A stretch of 64,000 bases of DNA from an uncultured Chloroflexia bacterium. Its GTDB lineage: Bacteria; Chloroflexota; Limnocylindria; Limnocylindrales; CSP1-4. Position numbers and translations under genes: made by a program. The notes below the pieces were generated by a model. It saw nothing but the letters and a program-made list of their open reading frames with translations. It was not told where the DNA came from and did no database searches. Below are positions 43,119-56,778 of the stretch, one piece after another. The stretch lies in NCBI GenBank assembly GCA_963778955.1, contig CAVZWI010000001.1, forward strand, positions 218,823-282,822, in the 5' to 3' direction. How positions within the stretch are numbered: the first letter of the stretch is position 1; every line of letters starts with the position of its first letter.

Positions 43119-45368
43119 TCAGGCGCCGCGGGCAGCCTCGGGGCTCGCGGTGGGCGCAGGCTCCACTTCGCCCCTGCGCTGGCCCATGACGCCAAGGACG
43201 GTTCGCCACGTCGATGCCACGACGAGCGCAGGTCGCCGCACGACACCGATGGCCGGAACGACGATGAACATGCCCGGGATGCCCGCCACCGCGGACCCGG
43301 CCGGGATGGCCACCAGCACGATGGCCGGATGGATGTGCACGGTCTTGCCGTACACGATCGGGCTCACGATATTGCCGGTCACGATGTTGAACACCAGCGT
43401 CCAGATGGCCATGATCACGATGTCCGTCTGTGAGCCCACGGCGATGGTGATGAGGAAGGCGATACCGGTCGAGAGGAAGCCGCCGATATAGGGGATGAAG
43501 CCCAGGAAGAAGGAGAGCACGAAGACGGGCAGGGCCAGCGGCAGACCCAGCACGACCATGATCACGAACTGGCTGGCCGCACCCACGAACGAGATGGCCG
43601 CGGTCCCGATCATGTAGCCACCGAGCACCTCGAATGCGCGGCTGGCGGCGGCGTTGACCTCGTCGAGCGTACCCGGTCGCAAGCGCGAGATGGCACGGCC
43701 CCACAGCTCGCCACCGTCGCGCAGGAAGTAGAACGTGAGCAAGGTGCTCAGCAGGACGATGACGGCGGCCCCGGCGAGTGATTCACCGACCTGGGTGAGC
43801 GTCTTCACCATGCCGGCAAGACCACCCGCGGCGGCGGCGGCCGGGATCTGGGCATGACCGCCCAGCGCGTCGTTGGCGGCACGCACGCCGGCATTGACAC
43901 CGTCGGAGAGCTCCCCGACCTGTTCGACGAGCGAGACGACGGTCAGGGCGAGGATGGCGCCGATGGCGAGGAATCCGCCACCGACGGTGATGGCGGCGGC
44001 GCGAGATCGTGCATGGCCGCGCCGCATCAGCGACTGTACGAGCGGGTCGAGGGTCGCTGTGAGCACGAGCCCCAGGACGACGGGGATCAGGACCAGCGGG
44101 ATGGCGGTGAAGACGACGACGGCAAGCGCGATGAGCGCGATGGCCACGAGCAGCCGCCAGCTGGATTGCGCCATGCGGTCAAGCCACGCCGGCACCAACC
44201 CGGGCAGGTCCGGTGGCGGGTCCGGATCGACGACGGCCACCACTGCGCCTGCGACCGCCAGGACCACGGCGGTCACGGGCACGGCCACGAAGAGACCGAT
44301 GACGCCGGCCAGCTGGAACCCCGCGGGGAGAGCGATGAGCACGATGGCCGGGTGGATGTTGACGGTGCGGCCGTAGATCATGGGCCGCACACCGTAGCCA
44401 AGCACCAGGTTGCGCAGCCCGATGAGCGCCAGCATCACGAGCGTCGGCCCGGTGCCCAGGGCGGCCAGTGTCACGAGCAGCACGACGAGGGTGGCGATGA
44501 TGCCGCCGAAGTAGGGGATGTACCCGCCCAGGAAGACGAGCATGGCCAGCGGGACGGCCAGCGGTACCCCCAACACCCACATGAACAGCAGGTCGCTGAG
44601 GGCCACCAGCGCGGCCAGGACGGTGGTGCCTCGCAGGTAGCCACCGACCCGGGCCAGGGCATCGTCGCCGGCCCCGGTGATGCGTTCCCGCTTCTGTTCA
44701 CTGGCCTCCTGGAACAGCCACAGCCATGCCTTGTCGCCATCACGCAGGAAGAAGAAGATCAGGAACGTCGCCAGGATCCCGATCGTGGCGAGCTCACCGG
44801 CAGCCGCCACGAGCCCACCGCCATCGTGGCCAACGGCGTCGCGGACGATGCCGATCAGATCATGCGCGATGGTGCTGACGAATGCGGGGACCTGCAGGTC
44901 CGCCAGGCTGGTCTGAAGCTGGCTGAGACCCGCGTCGATACGGGTCAGGAGCTCAGCCAGATACGGCAGGAACGCGGCCACCAGGAGGAGCAGGACGCCG
45001 CCGATGCTGACCACCGCGGCGGCCCAGACGATGGCCGCTGAAGCCGTCCTCGATCGGCCGCCGTCGCGCAGCCGCAGGACCAGGGGCGCGAAGACCGCCG
45101 AGACGATGATGGCGACCAGGATGGAGGCCGTGACCGTCCACAGGGTGGCGGTGATGGCGCCAAGCACCAACAGGAAGCCGGCGACGGCCAGGATGCGCCA
45201 GCCGAGCGCGGCCAGGTTGACCAGCCAATCAGGGACGAGCTGGGGAGCAGTGACCGAATGGGCGGTGGAAGCAGCGACCTGGCCGGCCCCTGAAACCTCC
45301 GGACCGAGCGGCGGGCGGGCGTGGCTGCCCACCTCGTCGCTCGCTGATCGTTCCGTCGGACCGGCCAT
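43119..45368 (-). CDS. AI-2E family transporter with two tandem AI-2E domains
   Basis: Duplicated motif sets: FFFLRDG...GYLRG...IPYFG...YGRTVNIHP and FYFLRDG...GYMIG...IPYIG...YGKTVHIHP. Confidence 0.88.
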   Translation of the reverse strand: MAGPTERSASDEVGSHARPPLGPEVSGAGQVAASTAHSVTAPQLVPDWLVNLAALGWRILAVAGFLLVLGAITATLWTVTASILVAIIVSAVFAPLVLRLRDGGRSRTASAAIVWAAAVVSIGGVLLLLVAAFLPYLAELLTRIDAGLSQLQTSLADLQVPAFVSTIAHDLIGIVRDAVGHDGGGLVAAAGELATIGILATFLIFFFLRDGDKAWLWLFQEASEQKRERITGAGDDALARVGGYLRGTTVLAALVALSDLLFMWVLGVPLAVPLAMLVFLGGYIPYFGGIIATLVVLLVTLAALGTGPTLVMLALIGLRNLVLGYGVRPMIYGRTVNIHPAIVLIALPAGFQLAGVIGLFVAVPVTAVVLAVAGAVVAVVDPDPPPDLPGLVPAWLDRMAQSSWRLLVAIALIALAVVVFTAIPLVLIPVVLGLVLTATLDPLVQSLMRRGHARSRAAAITVGGGFLAIGAILALTVVSLVEQVGELSDGVNAGVRAANDALGGHAQIPAAAAAGGLAGMVKTLTQVGESLAGAAVIVLLSTLLTFYFLRDGGELWGRAISRLRPGTLDEVNAAASRAFEVLGGYMIGTAAISFVGAASQFVIMVVLGLPLALPVFVLSFFLGFIPYIGGFLSTGIAFLITIAVGSQTDIVIMAIWTLVFNIVTGNIVSPIVYGKTVHIHPAIVLVAIPAGSAVAGIPGMFIVVPAIGVVRRPALVVASTWRTVLGVMGQRRGEVEPAPTASPEAARGA

Positions 45369-45405: not shown

Positions 45406-45585
45406 CTAGAAGCGGCGGCGCCCCGGGGTGACGGCAGCGCCTACCACGGCCGCCTTGGCGACGGGGGAGGGACCGGGCTTGACGGCAGCGCCCACGACCG
45501 CCGCCTTGGCGACGGGGGAGGGACCGGGCTTGACGGCAGCGGTCACGACCGCGGCCTTGGCGACACGAGATGGTCTGAGCGGCAT
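45406..45585 (-). CDS. 59-aa tandem-repeat microprotein (not in the ORF track)
   Basis: TAAGGAG Shine-Dalgarno overlapping the upstream stop, ATG 45585, translation MPLRPSRVAKAAVVTAAVKPGPSPVAKAAVVGAAVKPGPSPVAKAAVVGAAVTPGRRRF*, TAG at 45406-45408. Confidence 0.75.
   Translation of the reverse strand: MPLRPSRVAKAAVVTAAVKPGPSPVAKAAVVGAAVKPGPSPVAKAAVVGAAVTPGRRRF
45429..45562. repeat. 51-bp tandem repeat, about 2.6 copies
   Basis: Units start at 45429, 45480 and 45531 (TGACGGCAGCG...GCCTTGGCGAC...); differences fall mostly at third codon positions of the minus-strand frame. Confidence 0.9.
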
Positions 45586-45595
45586 ATCAAGCTCC

Positions 45596-46045
45596 TTACG
45601 CTTCGGCCGCCGCGTCGGCTTCGACGGCGGCGATGATGGCCTGGATGGGGATGCGGCCGTCAGCGATCAGCTGGCCGCCGGCGCGACGGACCGATGACGC
45701 GAACGGTGCCGCCCACAGATTCTCATAGATAAGGACACCGGCCACGCTGCCGGGAGCCATGGCCTCAGCGAGGGTCGCGACGTCGTCCGCAGCGAGCGTT
45801 TCGACGAGCTGTTCTTCGATGTGCTCAAGCTCGCCGAGCTCAGCAAGATCGGAGACCTCATCGGCCTCGAAGGAGCCGTCCTCGTCCTTGACGATGATGA
45901 CCAGGTCCATGATACGGATGGTTCCCGCATCGTGAAGCTTGACCAGCTCGGTCACGCTCTCACCGGTGAAATTCTGGTGACCGGCGGGGAATTCGACGAT
46001 CAGGTAGTCGACGGGCCCCAACTCGTCGATCGATCTCTCGGTCAT
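45596..46045 (-). CDS. DUF6325-like protein
   Basis: LGPVDYLIVEFP...IRIMDLVIIVKDEDG...GVLIYENLWAAPF...GGQLIADGRIP; GAAAGGAAAG before ATG 46045. Confidence 0.8.
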   Translation of the reverse strand: MTERSIDELGPVDYLIVEFPAGHQNFTGESVTELVKLHDAGTIRIMDLVIIVKDEDGSFEADEVSDLAELGELEHIEEQLVETLAADDVATLAEAMAPGSVAGVLIYENLWAAPFASSVRRAGGQLIADGRIPIQAIIAAVEADAAAEA

Positions 46046-46120
46046 GCTCTTTCCTTTCGATGTGGCCGATTTGCCCGCCACTGGCAGGCACGATTGACGC
46101 ACGACACGAACGGCATCGCA

Positions 46121-46137
46121 TCATCCGGACTGGATGA
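46121..46137. promoter_or_regulatory. Inverted MalT-box-like site 2 (TCATCC-GGACT-GGATGA)
   Basis: Perfect inverted hexamers 75 nt upstream of the DUF6325-like ATG. Confidence 0.8.
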
Positions 46138-46258
46138 CACGGACAGTATGGCCGACCTGGCCGGTCGAATCGCGGAGCATCGGCTATCCGAAGCGGTCCA
46201 GACACGCTCAGCCGTCCGGCATGCTGGCGCGGTGGAGCGCCTCGGAACCTGGGCCGGA

Positions 46259-49163
46259 TCGAGCCGGCGGCGCCGGCTCCGACCGCCTGTGCATTGTGCT
46301 GCGCGTGGAGCTTGAGCTCGTCCGCCTGGATCATCGGCTTCAAGTCGAAGACGACGTTCTTGACGGTGCCGGTGAACGCGTATGGGGCCCTGTCCTCGTA
46401 GGCGAGATCGACGACGCCGCCGTTGTCACGACCGATGTCCATACCGGCATAGGTGGTGAAGATCAGCGAGACCGTCTTCTCCAGGCGACCTTCGCCGATC
46501 TGCTTGTCGTTCGCCCAAAGCGTCACCCGGCCACCCGCGGCGTGCTCTGTCGAATCCGCTTCGAACAGCATCTTGACGGTGACCGCTCCGGTGGGGATGG
46601 GCTCGGTCGAGGTCTGCTTGTAGGTCTCGATGCCGAGGTACTGGTAGGTGTGGTTGAGCAGGCCCTTCTCGTCGACCCACAGGGCGAAGCCCCCGATGAA
46701 GTCGGCGAAGGCCACGAGGACACCCTCGGCGCCATCGGCCGGCACATCGACGTTCGCCTCGATGGCGTACGAGCGCCCGTAGATACGGGGGATCATCGAG
46801 GTCTGGATGTTCTGGACATCGCCGGCGTAGTTGAACCGGGTGATGGTCGGCAGCGGTGGCAGATCGCCCATCCACACCGAGAAGGGCGCCAGCAGCGGCA
46901 GCACGTGATTCCGCTCGGCCTCTTCCCAGAACAGGTCCTGCAGCTCCTTGAGCTTCTCGGGGTTCTCGGCGGCCAGATTCCTGGCCTGAGAGAAGTCGTC
47001 GGGCAGGTAGTAGAGCTCCCAGACGTCATCGTCTGTGCTGTACTTGCCAGGGGCGAAGCGGGCCAGGGTCTCCGGCGTGAAGTCCCAGGGAGCCTTGTCC
47101 AGCTTGGTGCAGGCCCACCAGCCGTCCTTGTACATCGCCCGGCTGCCGAGCATCTCGAAGTACTGAACGCTGTGCCGCTCCTCGGCCTTCGGCTCATCGA
47201 AGGTGTAGAGGAAGCTGGTGCCGTCCATGGGCTCCTGCTCGATGCCGTCGACCATGCTGGGCGCCGGGATGCCGACCGCCTCGAGGATCGTGGGAACGAT
47301 GTCGATGCAGTGGGTGAACTGCTCGCGCAGGTCACCGCCAGCCGGGATATGCCCCGGCCAGGCCACGACCATCGGGTCGCGGGTGCCCCCCAGGTGGCTG
47401 GCCATCTGCTTGCCCCACTGGAACGGCGTGTTGTTGGCGTGGGCCCAGGCAGCCGCGAAGTGCGGCGCCGTGTGGAAGCCGCCGAGGGCCTCGATGCCAC
47501 CGAACTTCTCGATGATCTTCAGCTGCTGGTCGGCGTCGAGGATGGCGCCATTGAAGAAGGTCGTCTCGTTGAACGAGCCCGTCAGGGTGCCTTCCATGCT
47601 GGAGCCGTTGTCACCCCAGATGTAGATGATGAGCGTGTTCTCCAGGTCGCCCATCTCCTCGATGGCGTCGAGCAGGCGGCCGATGTTCCAGTCGGCGTTC
47701 TCAGAATAGCCCGCGAAGACCTCCATCTGGCGCGCATAGAGCTTCTTCTGGGCATCGGTGAGTGAGTCCCAGGCCGGGAAGAGCTCGGGCCGCTCACTCA
47801 ACTCGGTGTCCTGCGGGACCACGCCGAGCTGCTTCTGGCGCTCCAGCGTAGCCTCACGGTACGCGTCCCAGCCCTCGTCGAACTTGCCCGCGTACCTGTC
47901 CGCCCACTGCTTGGCGACATGGTGGGGCGCGTGACTGCAGCCGGTGGAGTAGTACATCATCCAGGGCTTCTCGGAGTCCTGCGCCCGGACCGCGTGCAGC
48001 CACTCGACGGACTTGTCGGTGATGTCGTCGGGGAAGTAGTACTCGTGGCCGTCCTTGCCCTGGGGCACCCCGATGGTGGTGTTGTCCACGGTGATGATGG
48101 GGTCGTACTGCCCGGCTGCACCGGTGAGGAAGCCCCACCAATGGTCGAAGCCCCAGGACTGGGGCCAGTGGTCGAAGGGGCCGGCCGCGCCCATCTGGCT
48201 CCCCGGGGTCAGGTGCCACTTGCCGAAGCCACCGGTGACGTAGCCGTTCTCCCGCAGGATCCGGGGCAGGGCCGTGCAGCTCCGAGGTCGTTCACCGGTG
48301 TAGCCGGGATACGGAGCGGGCAGCTCAGCGATGGTGCCCATGCCCACGCGATGGTGATTGCGACCGGTGAGCAGCGCGGCCCGCGTGGGCGAGCAGACGG
48401 CGGTCACGTGGAAGCGGTTGTAGGTCAGGCCCATCTGCTGGACGCGGGTCAGGGTCGGGGTGGAGATGCCACCACCGAAGGTGTCCGGGCCACCGAAACC
48501 GGCGTCGTCGATGAGCACGACCAGCACGTTGGGTGCGCCTTCGGGGGCCTTGGGGCTGGGCATGATGGTCCAGTCGCCGACGGACTGGTCCAGCGTGCGG
48601 CCCATGGTGCCGCCGAACTTGCGGTCGGGGATGGGCAGCACGGTCCGGTCGGGCTTGAACTTGCCCATCGCCTCCATGAGGGAGTCCTTGAGCGCCGCGG
48701 TGCCCTTCTTGTCGGTCTGGACGACGGACTTCAGGAGTGAGCCCGAGAGTGACTGCTCGACAGCCAGGCGCTGCCCCTCGTCGAACTCGGCGATGATGGC
48801 TGCCGAGCCGGACGGCAGCGCCTCTCCGATCTTGTCGTGGAACCCCGCTGCCAGCTTGTGGTCGGCGAACTTGCCGACGATGGCGCCGCCGGCTGCGCCG
48901 ACGACGGTCGCAGCCAGCAGTGGTGGCGCCGCGAGGCCGACCAGGAAGCCCACGCTGCCGCCCCACTTGGCACCAGTGCGACCGAGATGGTCGCCGGTCT
49001 GCTGGACGACGACGTTGCCGTCCGTGTCATGGGTGATGAGGATGGCGGCCTCGATGGCGACGGAATTCGCCTGTACCTTCTCGATGAGCGCATCGAAGTC
49101 GGTGGTCGCGGTGGCCACGTCTTGGTAGCCGGCGACGAGAACGTCAGTGAGTTCCTGAGCCAT
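46259..49163 (-). CDS. atsB: Arylsulfatase with an N-terminal DUF1269-like domain (AtsB-type); true stop probably disrupted by an inserted base at 46261
   Basis: PNVLVVLIDDAG, formylglycine motif CSPTRAALLTG, FGKWH, GCSHAPHH and WGDNG. Protein ends QAVGAGAAG, followed by T(C)GA. Confidence 0.88.
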
Positions 49164-52119: not shown

Positions 52120-54408
52120 TCACGCATCATCCCGACGGGGTGAAACCCCGACTGTCCTGGCCGTCGAGGTGGTCACCCAGCTCGCCGCGTCCAGCACGCT
52201 CGGAACAGCCGCGGGGTCCAAAAGGCCGAAGCGCACGGCCGCGACCACCGCTTCCGAGCGCGAGGAGGCGCCCAGCTTGCGGTAGATGGCGAGAGCTTGT
52301 GTCTTCACCGTGTTGGGCGAAAGGAACAGCCGCTCACCGATCTCCCGGAATGAAAGATGGGTCGCCAGCCAGGGCACCAGGCGAAGCTCGGCGTCCGTCA
52401 GGGCAGACGCACCTGACGCCGACTCTAAGTGAGTCGATACCTGCTCCTTCAGCCGTCGCGTTTCGTCCTCCAGCGCGCCCATCCCGGGCCGACGCCGCAG
52501 GATGTCGCTGGCCTCGCGCAAGAGCAGGCGCGCGGCGGTCGCATCGGCCAAGGCAAGGTGCGCCTGGGCCAGGTCCAGGCGAGCGATGAGCGCGGGCCCC
52601 GGAATGGCCCACGTCAGCAGTGGCCGCACCGTCTGGGCATGGGCAAGGTAGGAACGAGCCAGGGCGAGATCGGCGTCGGCAGTGATGGCCAGGCGCGCCA
52701 GGAGTGCGTCGAACATCGCCTGCATGCCCTGGCCGCCGATACCGTTACGGGCGCGCAACCGTGCCGCCTGTTCAAGGTGCTGCCTGGCGCCCCCCAGGTC
52801 ACCCGCGTCGAGCAGTCCTCTCGCCAGCAGGGCGTAGGCGATCGAGCGCGAGTTGGCATCGGGGCCCTGGGGCCGGTATGGATCGACGACCTCGAGCAAG
52901 GCGGCCTCGCTCTCGGCGGGCCGGCCGTTCATCATCTGGCACAGCCCCAGCGTGGTCAGCGCAGCGCCCCGCCAGGGGCTCCCGCTCCCGATCAGCTCAC
53001 AGGCACGGAGGGCATCCGTCAGTGCGGCGGATGCGCCCGACCGACAGGCGACCGCCGACGCGAGGGCACTCCACCCGGTGCTCTCCTTGCGACCGCCGGC
53101 AGCCGCGTCGTGGAGGGATCGCGCCCAGCGTTCGGCACGCTCTCCTTCCCCGCCGAACGCCAGGACGAAATGCCCGGACATGGCCAGGAGTGGATCGCGG
53201 CGAACCAGGTCGGACTCCTCCGCCCAGTCCAGCCAACGTCGCACCGTGGGCGTGCGGCCGGCGTTGAAGGTGGGCTGCACGAACATGCGGATGAGCCGCG
53301 ACGTGATGTCGTCGTTGCCTGACTCCATGGCGTAGCTGACCGCCTCCACGGGATCGTCATGCAGGGCATACCACTCAGCGGTGCGGCCGCGCAATGTCGC
53401 CAGCAGGTCTGGGTCCGTGCGGTTCAGCTCAGCCGAGAGTGCTTCGCGGAACATGTCGTGGTAGCGGTAGTGATCGCCCTGCACACGCGTCACGAAGGCG
53501 TTGGAGTCGCAGAGCCGGCCGAGCAGGATGGCTGAGCCGCTCCGCTCAAGCACAGCGTCACAGAGGGGTGCGGAGAGCTCCCGCAGGACGGAGGTCCGGA
53601 GCAGGAAGTCGACCTCGTCGGTCGACATGCGCGAGAGGACCTCCGAGTGGATGTACTGACCGAGCAGATCGCGCCCGCGCGACGGCTGGCGACTGGGCGC
53701 CCGAGCGGGATCACCCATGGCGCTGAGAAGCAGCCCGCTGACCCAACCCTCGCAGGCCTGGTTGAGCTGAGCGCCTTGCCCCGCAGCCATCTCGATGCCA
53801 GAGGTGCGCAGCAGCTCCCGGGCCTCGTCATCTGAGAGCCTGAGCTGGTCGACACCGATCTCCACGATGCGTCGTTCCAGGTGGAGCCTGGGCCCGGCCA
53901 GCCCCGTCGCCGCGCGACCGGCGATGACGAGCTGCGACCCCGCGGGCACCTGCAGCGCCAGCGAGTTGACCACATCCAGGCACTCGGGTTCGCTGATCTC
54001 GTGGATGTCATCGATGACCTGGATGAACGGCGACCTCTTCGTCAGCTCAGCGGAGATGCGTGGCATGAGCCGCGACCAGATCGAGGCCGTGGGCATCTCA
54101 AGCGCTTCCTCGATGGCGCGAGCCGATGGCCAGGCTTCCAGGATGGCGAGGGCGATACTGGTGGCCAGAGTCATCGGATCGTTGTCGCGTCGATCGAGCG
54201 ACAGCCACACGACCGGCAGGTCGGCGGACCCGACCCAGCTGTGAAGTAGCGTCGACTTGCCGTATCCGGCTGGTGCGATGACGGTGACGACCCCAGCCTC
54301 CAGCGGATCGGGCCTGAGGCCGAGCAGGCGCTCCCTGGCCACGAGTCGTCGTCGGACCGTGGGCGGCTGCAACTTGGTGACAGCCGAGGGCGATACGATC
54401 GTGGTCAA
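52120..54408 (-). CDS. MalT-like STAND ATPase with a C-terminal LuxR HTH (transcriptional activator)
   Basis: TKLQPP..RRRLVARERL, P-loop APAGYGKST, WLSLDRRDND, Walker B VIDDIH, CEGWVSGL, YRYHDMF, TPR-like helical region, and HTH LTDAELRLVPWLATHLSFREIGERLFLSPNTVKTQALAIYRKLG. Start codon uncertain. Confidence 0.92.
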   Translation of the reverse strand: MTTIVSPSAVTKLQPPTVRRRLVARERLLGLRPDPLEAGVVTVIAPAGYGKSTLLHSWVGSADLPVVWLSLDRRDNDPMTLATSIALAILEAWPSARAIEEALEMPTASIWSRLMPRISAELTKRSPFIQVIDDIHEISEPECLDVVNSLALQVPAGSQLVIAGRAATGLAGPRLHLERRIVEIGVDQLRLSDDEARELLRTSGIEMAAGQGAQLNQACEGWVSGLLLSAMGDPARAPSRQPSRGRDLLGQYIHSEVLSRMSTDEVDFLLRTSVLRELSAPLCDAVLERSGSAILLGRLCDSNAFVTRVQGDHYRYHDMFREALSAELNRTDPDLLATLRGRTAEWYALHDDPVEAVSYAMESGNDDITSRLIRMFVQPTFNAGRTPTVRRWLDWAEESDLVRRDPLLAMSGHFVLAFGGEGERAERWARSLHDAAAGGRKESTGWSALASAVACRSGASAALTDALRACELIGSGSPWRGAALTTLGLCQMMNGRPAESEAALLEVVDPYRPQGPDANSRSIAYALLARGLLDAGDLGGARQHLEQAARLRARNGIGGQGMQAMFDALLARLAITADADLALARSYLAHAQTVRPLLTWAIPGPALIARLDLAQAHLALADATAARLLLREASDILRRRPGMGALEDETRRLKEQVSTHLESASGASALTDAELRLVPWLATHLSFREIGERLFLSPNTVKTQALAIYRKLGASSRSEAVVAAVRFGLLDPAAVPSVLDAASWVTTSTARTVGVSPRRDDA
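52127..52143. promoter_or_regulatory. Inverted MalT-box-like site 5 (TCATCC-CGACG-GGGTGA), inside the last codons of the regulator gene
   Basis: One mismatch; 88 nt upstream of the CMD-like ATG. Confidence 0.65.
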
Positions 54409-54493
54409 CGCGAGCCGAGCAATTTGACACCCTCGAGATGAGTGGACGCCAATGGGGACCGTAGCACGCATACTATGGCCGATGATTGCGGTT

Positions 54494-54510
54494 TCATCCC
54501 TTTCGGATGT
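54494..54510. promoter_or_regulatory. Inverted MalT-box-like site 6 (TCATCC-CTTTC-GGATGT)
   Basis: One mismatch; lies between the divergent regulator and holin-phosphodiesterase genes. Confidence 0.7.
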
Positions 54511-54615
54511 CGCGTGATCGACGCACGAAACCGAGAGTATCGATAGCGATCTCGCAACAGCATTGGATGGAACGTCGGACATGAGGCAGCGCCCTGACCC
54601 CGGTCTTCAGCTCCC

Positions 54616-56778
54616 ATGAACAGCCTGAACAAGCTCGTCGCACTCTATCGAACGCAGATCGGGCTGCTGTGGCACTGGCGCCTGGGCCGTGGTGCGCTCG
54701 TCAAGCGAGCACTCATCTCCCTGGTCGCGGCCCTCATCGCCTTCTGGCTCACGGCCTGGCTCGTGCCGGGCCTCCTGGAGATCACCGAGCTCGGCGGCGG
54801 TCTGCTTGCGATCCTGTTCATCAGTGCCCTCAACCTGCTGGTGCGCCCGGCCCTGCTGGTGCTGGTGGCCGGACGCTTCGTGCTGCTGGTGATCGCGACA
54901 CTGCTCTTCCAGGCGCTCGTCATCTGGTTGCTCACGCCGCTCGTCCCGGGCGTCACGGTGGAGGGCGGCATCCTCGGCGCCCTGCTGGTGTCGTTCATCC
55001 TTGGCTTCTTCACCGGCGCCGCCGGTATCCTCTTCGGCCTGGGTGAGGACGACTCCTACTACGGCGCGCTCGTGCGCACGCTGGCCACGCGCCGGGACGA
55101 CGTCATCCACAGCGACGAACCCGGACTCATCATCATCCAGGTCGACGGGCTGTCGCACGATGTCCTGTCGCATTCGCTGCGCGCGGGACGCGTGCCCTAC
55201 CTCAGCCGCCTGGTCCGCTCGGGAAGCCACAAGCTCGCCCACTGGACGGCGCTGCTGCCGTCGACGACACCGGCCAGCCAGGCCGGCATCCTGCATGGCA
55301 ACAACGACGGCATCCCCAACTTCCGCTGGTACGAGAAGGAGACCGGGCAGCTGCTGGTGGCCAACCATCCCGAGGACGCGACCGTCATCGAGTCTCGCAT
55401 CTCGAATGGCGAGGGCCTGCTGAGCCCGGGCGGCGCCAGCATCAGCAACATCTTCACCGGGGACGGCGACCGCGCCTTCCTGGTGATGTCCACCATCAAG
55501 GTCAAGGAGCGCGGCCTGGGCCAGTCCAACGCGTTCGCGCACTACTTCGCGAGCCCCTACAACTACCTCACCATGCTGGCGCAATACCTTGCCGAGGTGG
55601 TCAAGGAGAACATCCAGTCGCGGCGCCAGACCCGTGCCGGCATCGAACCACGGATGCATCGAGGCTTCCCCTACCCCTGGGTGCGTGGCGCGACCAATGT
55701 GGCCCTGCGTGCGCTGGGCACGTCACTGATCATCGAAGAGATGATGCGCGGCACGCCCGTCGTCTACATGGACTACACCGACTACGACGAGATCGCGCAC
55801 CACAGCGGACCCGAGCGCGCCGAGTCGCTCGACGCGCTCGACGGCGTGGACCGCGAGCTGGCGACGCTGGCCAAGGCGGCCGGGGACGCGCCGCGACCCT
55901 ATCGCTTCGTCTACCTCGCTGACCATGGCCAGAGCCTGGGGGCCACATTCCTGCAGCGTTACGGCGTGACCTTGCAGGACGTGGTGCGTTCGCTCATGGG
56001 CGGAACGGCTTCGGTGGCTGCCGCGACCGCGCAGATCGAGGACTGGGGCCCGCTCAACACGTTCCTCAGCGAAGTCGGCCAGACAGACAGCGTGGCCGGC
56101 TCGGTCACCCGCACCGCGACGCGCCACCGCAGCAAGGACGGCCAGGTCGACCTCGGGCCCGACCAAGGGTTCGTGGTCGAGGGCACGAGCGCTGACACCA
56201 AGGCAGGGTCCGGCGAGGACGAGCCCGCGGACCTCATCGTGGTCGCCGGCGGCAACCTCGCGCTGGTGTACTTCACCGCCATCGACGGGCGCGCCGACTT
56301 GCAGCAGATCGAGGCGGCCTATCCCGACCTCGTGGACGCGCTCGCCAACCATCCGGGTATCGGCGTGCTCATCGTGCGCTCGGACGCCCACGGGCTGCTG
56401 GCTGTCGGCGGCGGCGGCATCCACTACCTCGACGAGGACCGCGTCGAAGGCGTCGACCCGCTCGCCGTCTATGGCGAGCATGCGTCCGCAGCCGTGCGGC
56501 GGCTCGACGAGATCGAGCATGTCGGCGACCTCGCGGTCATCAGCACCTATGACCCCGAGACCGGCGATATCGCCGCCTTCGAGGAGCTCATCGGCGCCCA
56601 CGGCGGGCTCGGTGGACCGCAGACCAAGCCGTTCCTGTTGCATCCGGCCGACTGGGAGCTGGACCTCGCGCCGCTCCTTGGTGCACCGATGGTCTACAAG
56701 CAGCTCCGGCACTGGATGGAGGACGAGCTGGGTATGACCTTCGGGCCTCAGCCCGGACGAGACGACGCGACAACCTGA
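54616..56778 (+). CDS. Fusion of a 4-TM phage-holin-like (superfamily IV-type) domain and an alkaline-phosphatase-superfamily phosphodiesterase domain
   Basis: N-terminal TM block (LVAALIAFWLTAWLVPG...LNLLVRPAL...NTLLFQ-like IATLLFQ...PGVTVEGG...ALLVS); C-terminal IQVDGLS, LPSTTPASQAGILHG, DYDEIAHH and ADHGQ. Confidence 0.82.
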   Translation: MNSLNKLVALYRTQIGLLWHWRLGRGALVKRALISLVAALIAFWLTAWLVPGLLEITELGGGLLAILFISALNLLVRPALLVLVAGRFVLLVIATLLFQALVIWLLTPLVPGVTVEGGILGALLVSFILGFFTGAAGILFGLGEDDSYYGALVRTLATRRDDVIHSDEPGLIIIQVDGLSHDVLSHSLRAGRVPYLSRLVRSGSHKLAHWTALLPSTTPASQAGILHGNNDGIPNFRWYEKETGQLLVANHPEDATVIESRISNGEGLLSPGGASISNIFTGDGDRAFLVMSTIKVKERGLGQSNAFAHYFASPYNYLTMLAQYLAEVVKENIQSRRQTRAGIEPRMHRGFPYPWVRGATNVALRALGTSLIIEEMMRGTPVVYMDYTDYDEIAHHSGPERAESLDALDGVDRELATLAKAAGDAPRPYRFVYLADHGQSLGATFLQRYGVTLQDVVRSLMGGTASVAAATAQIEDWGPLNTFLSEVGQTDSVAGSVTRTATRHRSKDGQVDLGPDQGFVVEGTSADTKAGSGEDEPADLIVVAGGNLALVYFTAIDGRADLQQIEAAYPDLVDALANHPGIGVLIVRSDAHGLLAVGGGGIHYLDEDRVEGVDPLAVYGEHASAAVRRLDEIEHVGDLAVISTYDPETGDIAAFEELIGAHGGLGGPQTKPFLLHPADWELDLAPLLGAPMVYKQLRHWMEDELGMTFGPQPGRDDATT

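Follow-up and report, generated by a model that had tools for sequence, protein, structure and literature searches.

Repeat microproteins encoded next to DUF6325 genes in Chloroflexota and Actinomycetota

Here, we identify a 59-amino-acid (aa) repeat microprotein encoded on the minus strand at positions 45406 to 45585 of a 64,000-nucleotide (nt) stretch of contig CAVZWI010000001.1 from an uncultured Chloroflexia bacterium (hereafter, the window). Comparisons between gene copies and across the family show that this open reading frame (ORF) is a true gene whose product is under strong purifying selection. The family to which it belongs is, judged by gene order, an obligate neighbor of one clade of DUF6325 genes, and we suggest that the peptide probably acts together with the acidic DUF6325 protein. 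Proteins of less than 60 aa are routinely missed, and the peptides described here constitute an unmodelled small-protein family. The strength of the evidence is unusual for a microprotein, with a nonsynonymous divergence (dN) of 0 at a synonymous divergence (dS) of 0.77 between paralogs, and with about 70% or more identity across two phyla. The pair also provides a testable handle on three families, i.e., DUF6325, DUF1269 and the SHOCT-type partners, in which the same ferredoxin-like domain is combined with a hydrophobic element carried either in the same chain or in a separate one. Cultured carriers are available in Agromyces neolithicus, A. binzhouensis and Cryobacterium adonitolivorans, and bench work is feasible.

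The 59 codons run from ATG to TAG and encode MPLRPSRVAKAAVVTAAVKPGPSPVAKAAVVGAAVKPGPSPVAKAAVVGAAVTPGRRRF, a peptide of three 17-aa units that is Arg-rich at both ends. At this length it is just short of the 60-aa cut-off of the default ORF track. A preliminary description made from the DNA letters had proposed a 59-aa ORF with three tandem repeats, located between the DUF6325 gene and an AI-2E transporter gene, behind an operator site and with a Shine-Dalgarno sequence overlapping the DUF6325 stop codon. ORF reading and Tandem Repeats Finder bear out the gene and its repeats, and the overlapping AAGGAG, the Arg-rich ends and the position between the two genes are all present (Table 1). The same description had taken the synonymous bias between repeat units as a sign of selection on the peptide. 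The bias is real but weak as evidence for selection: few bases differ between the units of one gene and, in a second copy of the gene, units 2 and 3 differ at only 1 of 33 bases, which points to intragenic homogenization of the repeat units. As shown by the comparisons below, the solid evidence for selection lies between paralogs and between orthologs, not between repeat units.

First, the source genome (3.25 Mb in four contigs, 68% G+C) contains a second copy of the microprotein gene (G000:C1:740005-740184) within a 641-bp paralogous stretch of 81% identity. The two copies encode identical peptides, and their 26 coding-base differences are all synonymous (25 at third positions and one AGA/CGA exchange). 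Calculated according to Nei and Gojobori, dS is 0.77 and dN is 0 for the microprotein genes versus 0.81 and 0.12 for the adjoining DUF6325 genes. Because the wobble-matched antisense frame is also open and differs by only 3 amino acids of 58 between the paralogs, these values cannot choose the strand alone, and dN/dS was rejected as a strand test and replaced by a degeneracy-class test. Second, in this test, the wobble sites of 92 distinct family coding sequences were classed by their degeneracy in each frame. Purines and pyrimidines are mixed at 0 of the 4 sites that are twofold degenerate in the proposed frame, at 12 of the 13 sites that are fourfold degenerate in the proposed frame and twofold in the antisense frame, and at 63 of the 70 sites that are fourfold degenerate in both. 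Third, variable sites at codon positions 1, 2 and 3 number 11, 9 and 54 among the 59 codons of the 59-aa class, and 18, 15 and 60 among the 68 codons of the 68-aa class. Fourth, the ATG, the ribosome-binding site (RBS) and the position of the stop are all conserved in the family, while the stop codon itself alternates between TAG and TGA. Altogether, the degeneracy classes, the codon-position bias and the conserved start, RBS and stop position support the conclusion that it is the minus-strand frame that is under selection, in keeping with the selection on the peptide that the preliminary description had proposed. We consider it extremely improbable that the conserved feature is instead the 51-bp repeat as non-coding DNA or the antisense ORF at 45428-45697 (+). 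The open antisense frame with its three differences speaks for the latter; however, the degeneracy test favors the minus strand (0 of 4 versus 12 of 13), and neither possibility accords with an ATG, an RBS and a stop position that are kept while the stop codon switches. Conservation at the DNA level only, which the preliminary description had itself raised, is contradicted by near-saturated variation at position 3 with positions 1 and 2 kept.

Homologs of the microprotein proved to be numerous. At E ≤1e-3, 435 relatives were found among 5.8 billion clusters at 90% identity, all of them unnamed or annotated as "hypothetical protein," and a family profile search of 1.84 billion representatives returned 84 clusters at 50% identity. 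The family occupies at least 80 genome loci in Chloroflexota of the Limnocylindrales type and in Actinomycetota. Carriers with names are mostly "uncultured Chloroflexia" or Candidatus Limnocylindrales metagenome-assembled genomes (MAGs); further carriers belong to Microthrixaceae, Iamiaceae, Acidimicrobiales, Agromyces, Microbacterium and Cryobacterium, with the A. neolithicus member (P0002) being a 70-aa hypothetical protein. From this distribution, the window itself very probably derives from a Chloroflexota genome of the Limnocylindrales type. A single genome can have up to 4-5 of these genes. Family members have a length of 50-85 aa and contain two to five tandem units of ~17 aa with the pattern P(V/I)AK(A/T)AVV.AAV.PG.S. 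They begin with MP(L)R..R, often followed by G(R/V)GV(V/I)GAP, and end with TPGRRR(F/I) directly before the stop, a pattern that the termini of the window peptide (MPLRPSR and TPGRRRF) fit. M1, P2, P54, G55, R56 and R58 are invariant in 49 family sequences, and the window peptide is 72-100% identical to family members. It has no match in the Pfam, NCBIfam or PADLOC libraries, and a scan of PHROGs gave only a non-significant match (E 0.47). While the exact 59-aa sequence is absent from ~15 billion predicted proteins, identical peptides are encoded in several related genomes and relatives at 93-95% identity have already been called as genes; the label "hidden" is fair for this 59-aa version. The tryptic peptides AAVV(T/G)AAVKPGPSPVAK are diagnostic for the microprotein.

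Some longer or misplaced family members deserve mention in their own right. Long profile matches that could pass for natural fusions of the peptide (P0309, P0314, P0317 and others) turned out to be gene calls with a frameshift or read-through. In a 185-aa metagenome protein (P0244), a DUF1269-like N-terminal domain, closely similar to that of the window sulfatase, is joined directly to VIGAPVAKAAVV... and the remaining repeat peptide; this protein is either a true deletion fusion or an assembly chimera. A DUF6325-peptide pair nested in the Limnocylindrales clade is also present on contig L081 (DATNFQ010000002.1), which bears the label "Patescibacteria group bacterium" and is probably mis-binned.

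The microprotein gene is tightly linked to DUF6325. All 30 same-genus loci examined have a DUF6325 gene immediately upstream, as do three of four outside contigs inspected (Agromyces, a metagenome contig set and a Limnocylindrales MAG), and the linkage that the preliminary description had put forward for checking holds in every well-resolved locus. The junction usually reads ..AAGGAGnnTGAnATG, with the AAGGAG placed within the final DUF6325 codons. In about 66 of 76 loci, a single nucleotide (1 nt) separates stop from start; the spacing is 2 nt at 6 loci and 10-11 nt at 5, and the window junction (10 nt) belongs to this last group. In the window, a GAA-to-TAA change stops DUF6325 two codons ahead of the ancestral TGA, which is why the RBS here looks as if built from a stop codon. 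In 36 same-genus genomes, both genes are present in 25 and neither in about 10. The only apparent exception (G007) contains a DUF6325 that is 56% identical and that precedes a divergent partner of 60 aa, MPLAARRVAAAAVLTPGPGIGRPGPAPIARTAATVATVAVVANGVDRRMDRRDDRRDRR. These junctions show, at the level of gene organization, that the microprotein gene is translationally coupled to DUF6325. A read-through fusion of the two products as a template for co-folding was rejected since the peptide is never in the DUF6325 frame (gaps of 1, 2, 10 or 11 nt).

In the phylogeny, the DUF6325 genes accompanied by repeat peptides group as a single clade, set apart by a long branch (2.22 substitutions per site, support 100/100). 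Sequences from Chloroflexota constitute one supported clade among those of Actinomycetota, with short branches within the clade. Because of this placement and these short branches, the tree suggests that the DUF6325-peptide pair spread between the phyla.

What kind of protein is DUF6325? A literature search retrieved no paper that mentions it. The AlphaFold2 model of the window protein is alpha/beta and confident, with a predicted local distance difference test (pLDDT) score of 88 and a predicted template modeling (pTM) score of 0.82. In a structural search with this model, no PDB entry was matched at E <0.001; ACT-type ferredoxin-like domains ranked highest, at a TM-score of about 0.33, and no enzyme was matched. 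A DNA-binding domain was not found with Pfam. A profile-profile comparison with hhalign aligned DUF6325 to DUF1269 with a probability of 92% (E 5.7e-7) over 117 columns that include both DUF1269 halves. A preprint independently describes DUF1269 as adopting a ferredoxin fold into which a GlyZip helical hairpin, interrupted by a proline, is embedded (bioRxiv 10.1101/2024.07.07.602159). Because the alignment places this glycine-zipper segment opposite a gap and an acidic linker in DUF6325, we conclude from the profiles that DUF6325 is a DUF1269-like ferredoxin/ACT-like domain without the zipper. In a 210-aa DUF6325 protein (P0168), the segment made up of the central beta-strand and the acidic linker is duplicated internally; this protein is not a peptide fusion.

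These findings lead us to favor, with moderate confidence, a model whereby the peptide binds the acidic DUF6325 protein and supplies a hydrophobic element in trans. The very basic peptide (charge +10, isoelectric point [pI] 12, no Asp or Glu), whose stretches between charged positions are hydrophobic, would form a complex with the strongly acidic DUF6325 (charge −23, pI 4.05); the family medians of +9 and −20 show the same complementarity. In doing so, it would provide an element comparable to the zipper of DUF1269, i.e., short small-residue-rich helices broken by prolines, and this element may mediate association with the membrane surface and/or assembly of several DUF6325 units. The peptide would then be the counterpart of the Arg-rich, hydrophobic N-terminus present in the SHOCT proteins encoded after other DUF6325 genes. 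The strict coupling, the joint presence and absence, the complementary charges and the missing zipper together make this supply in trans the most economical reading. A more far-reaching version, which we put forward only tentatively and regard as rather doubtful, is that of a multivalent scaffold in which each unit docks one DUF6325 and the number of repeats (two to five) sets the stoichiometry of an array at the membrane surface. The pair would in that case be a two-chain version of DUF1269 under the control of a LAL-type regulator, moved as a unit between Actinomycetota and Chloroflexota.

Several observations weigh against the supply of a zipper-like element in trans. The helices of the repeat units, which have a uniform hydrophobicity (Eisenberg mean about 0.55), are non-amphipathic (hydrophobic moment 0.16-0.25). 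Modelled alone with AlphaFold2, the peptide is predicted, at low confidence, as three short helices without a tertiary fold (pLDDT 61, pTM 0.27). For the longest run without Lys, Arg, Asp, Glu or Pro in each family member, the median length is 9 residues and the maximum 10, which makes a classical transmembrane helix unlikely and bears on the suggestion of the preliminary description that the peptide may be membrane-active or self-assembling. The unit VAKAAVVGAAV has only AxxxG/AxxxA spacing rather than GxxxGxxxG, and the peptide has no match to the Gly-zipper models of Pfam (Gly-zipper_Omp/YMGG/OmpA). Nor does the repeat unit have demonstrable kinship with the N-termini of the SHOCT-type partners: BLASTP gave an E of 1.4, the hhalign probability varied with the subset between 5 and 81%, the best real comparison (24.9) was practically equalled by one of 30 column-shuffled controls (24.6), and the family profile search retrieved no SHOCT-type protein. 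Homology between the two is not significant against the shuffled controls, and the likeness of the peptide to SHOCT-type partners is only positional and compositional. Finally, at one outside locus (L041), the gene upstream of the peptide gene is a mere 77 aa long with no Pfam match on record.

The arrangement of the pair also invites a different reading, in which it forms a toxin-antitoxin-like module with a cationic hydrophobic peptide that damages membranes and an acidic DUF6325 that is made first and neutralizes it. The order of an acidic protein followed at a 1-nt gap by a small basic one, the complementary charges, the presence of up to 4-5 copies per genome, the flanks that vary among loci, with IS110 or integrase genes near some copies, and the tree that suggests inter-phylum spread would all suit such a module. 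However, neither protein matches PADLOC or PHROGs, DUF6325 lacks a recognizable DNA-binding domain, and the peptide has no membrane-spanning segment, for which about 18 residues or more would be needed while the family maximum is 10. Moreover, the extreme conservation of the peptide across phyla would be unusual for toxins of this kind, the pair lies behind an operator-like site common to the neighboring genes and beside LAL regulators, and the homologous DUF1269 bears its hydrophobic element in the same chain, an arrangement hard to reconcile with a toxin-antidote relationship. This possible reading is worse supported than binding of the peptide by DUF6325 with supply of an element in trans, and we consider it unlikely. 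We judge it about equally unlikely that the peptide is a stand-alone self-assembling or structural peptide (a fibril, coat or condensate) whose coupling to DUF6325 reflects co-regulation without binding. Uniformly hydrophobic Ala/Val/Gly-rich units set apart by Pro/Gly turns, a repeat number that ranges from two to five and a monomer predicted at low confidence are in line with self-assembly, but the strictness of the DUF6325 junction and of the joint presence and absence, the co-divergence of the DUF6325 clade with the peptide and the complementary charges of the two products are not.

Two further readings, both suggested in the preliminary description, depend on neighbors other than DUF6325. 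In one of them, the peptide is a multi-core ribosomal peptide precursor from which 17-aa units are cut out, modified and exported, as the tandem, near-identical units with Pro-rich spacers and the transporter gene downstream in the window might indicate. In the other, it is an accessory or regulatory subunit of this AI-2E family transporter, whose gene lies on the same strand 37 nt downstream with no terminator-like site found in the gap; in the window, the two genes are probably co-transcribed. Both readings fail because DUF6325 is the sole invariant neighbor across 76 loci and because the flank of the second copy differs. The transporter gene is downstream in only 7 of the 76 loci; at copy 2, a terminator-like hairpin and then a nucleoside hydrolase gene follow, and at other loci the downstream gene is a nucleoside hydrolase, DUF998, P-type ATPase or amylase-type gene. 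Among the 76 loci, there is also no recurring gene for peptide maturation, a protease, a modifying enzyme or export, in agreement with the earlier remark that no modifying enzyme is evident nearby. In addition, the ACT/ferredoxin-like fold of DUF6325 has no enzyme match, and the conserved termini and invariant full-length peptide argue for a function of the whole chain. We regard a cut-and-exported precursor as very improbable and a transporter subunit as slightly more improbable still.

Table 1. Positions of the microprotein gene and of the features around it in the window
Feature	Position	Strand	Basis
Double AI-2E family transporter, 749 aa, own GGAGGAG RBS, 37 nt downstream of the microprotein gene	43119..45368	-	Pfam, E 9e-80
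Repeat microprotein coding sequence, TAG stop at 45406-45408	45406..45585	-	ORF reading, paralog comparison, strand test
51-bp tandem repeat, 2.7 copies, 92% matches, encoding VAKAAVV(T/G)AAV(K/T)PGPSP units	45429..45564	-	Tandem Repeats Finder
Shine-Dalgarno AAGGAG, 6 nt before the microprotein ATG, overlapping the DUF6325 TAA stop (45596-45598)	45592..45597	-	Sequence reading
DUF6325 gene, 150 aa from ATG at 46048	45596..46048	-	Pfam PF19850, E 2e-5, weak but above threshold
Sulfatase with N-terminal DUF1269 (glycine-zipper) domain, 1067 aa, upstream	45960..49163	-	Pfam
Perfect palindrome TCATCCGGACTGGATGA (TCATCC-N5-GGATGA), candidate operator, 73 nt upstream of the DUF6325 start	46121..46137	.	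Sequence search
LAL/MalT-type regulator (AAA + TPR + GerE), candidate regulator at the palindromes	52120..54582	-	Pfam

Beyond the pair itself, a sulfatase gene is found upstream in 19 of the 76 loci and a LAL-type regulator gene nearby in 13. The palindrome TCATCC-N5-GGATGA occurs six times in the window (43077, 46121, 50027, 51452, 52127 and 54494) versus 0.15 occurrences expected. The genome has 12 such palindromes, of which 8 lie at the two DUF6325-peptide loci (the 6 of the window plus C1:740706 and C1:743679), one of them ~60 nt upstream of the second DUF6325 copy; in 10 of 69 other loci, a palindrome is present within 400 nt upstream of DUF6325. LAL-type regulators (AAA + GerE) are also encoded divergently from copy 2 and at L037-L039. 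The combination of palindromes and LAL regulators at both DUF6325-peptide loci of this genome looks like a small regulon.

The surroundings of the pair show additional features. A gene for a P-type cation ATPase is located near the pair at copy 2 (L007:12058-14826), and in a Limnocylindrales MAG (L040:4300-7092) such a gene lies directly downstream of the pair and is followed by PPK2. In the window, the DUF1269-sulfatase ORF continues for ~95 Arg/Pro-rich residues beyond the sulfatase domain (45960-46140, -), and this tail runs across the palindrome (46121-46137) and shares 89 nt with the beginning of the DUF6325 gene. Instead of genuine protein sequence, it seems to reflect a stop that was lost or an indel in the assembly; close relatives carry other genes upstream, and comparison with them is uninformative on the sulfatase end. 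Beside one of the palindromes, a 720-aa ORF (54616-56778, +) combines a Phage_holin_4_2 N-terminus (holin superfamily IV with four transmembrane segments, 4-TMS) with a type I phosphodiesterase/nucleotide pyrophosphatase domain.

Comparison with known systems places the pair among modules that join a ferredoxin-like domain to a hydrophobic element. DUF1269 (PF06897) resembles the pair in that both of its halves align with DUF6325 and in that its insert consists of two short, small-residue-rich hydrophobic helices split by a proline, similar in style to the PGPSP-separated units of the peptide. DUF1269 genes also adjoin the pair, in the window as a fusion to the sulfatase and likewise at L162. 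At this latter locus (G007:C54:93500-97500), 3 kb contain a DUF1269 gene standing alone, a DUF6325+SHOCT pair and a DUF6325 gene whose divergent 60-aa partner ends in DRR repeats. Thus, DUF1269, DUF6325+peptide and DUF6325+SHOCT modules cluster together in the window and at L162. Unlike the pair, DUF1269 carries its hydrophobic element within the same chain and as a true GxxxG-type zipper, whereas the peptide is a separate chain with AxxxG/AxxxA spacing, a Lys in each unit and Arg-rich ends. A looser likeness exists to the (GlyZip)3 C-terminus of the cyanobacterial protein calcyanin, which is discussed alongside DUF1269 and which also comprises three tandem small-residue-rich hydrophobic motifs, each split by a proline (bioRxiv 10.1101/2024.07.07.602159). 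The calcyanin units are much longer, Gly-rich and part of a larger protein, and we draw the parallel as an analogy alone, with no claim of a sequence relationship.

The closest parallel is provided by the SHOCT-type partners. Other DUF6325 genes sampled in the phylum are followed by genes for proteins of 105-150 aa that start with an Arg-rich segment, continue with an Ala/Val/Gly/Thr-rich stretch and a Gln/Ala-rich linker, and end in a SHOCT-like C-terminus; Pfam confirmed the SHOCT domain in five of five partners scanned (34-38 bits). It has been predicted that SHOCT-like domains tether proteins to the membrane at its inner leaflet (PMC11237479), and the single published test gave no support for oligomerization via SHOCT (PMC3581485). 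The DUF6325+SHOCT pair (PF19850 + PF09851), found in Chloroflexota and Actinomycetota, resembles the window pair in having a small gene directly after DUF6325, and its partners resemble the peptide in their Arg-rich start followed by a hydrophobic stretch (e.g., MMRRPPPRRGPGLMGTMARTAVVAGTA). The two types of pair also co-occur in one genome and even at one locus. In the genome studied here, a third DUF6325 gene (C1:1273393-1273800, L048) is followed by a gene for a 113-aa SHOCT-domain partner, and both types therefore coexist in it. By contrast, the window peptide lacks both a SHOCT domain and a Gln/Ala-rich linker, contains its hydrophobic unit three times and ends in RRRF, and the DUF6325 genes with repeat peptides form a clade of their own. 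Altogether, judged by gene order and composition, the DUF6325-peptide pair is best seen as a variant of an arrangement in which DUF6325 is accompanied by a small, Arg-rich hydrophobic partner.

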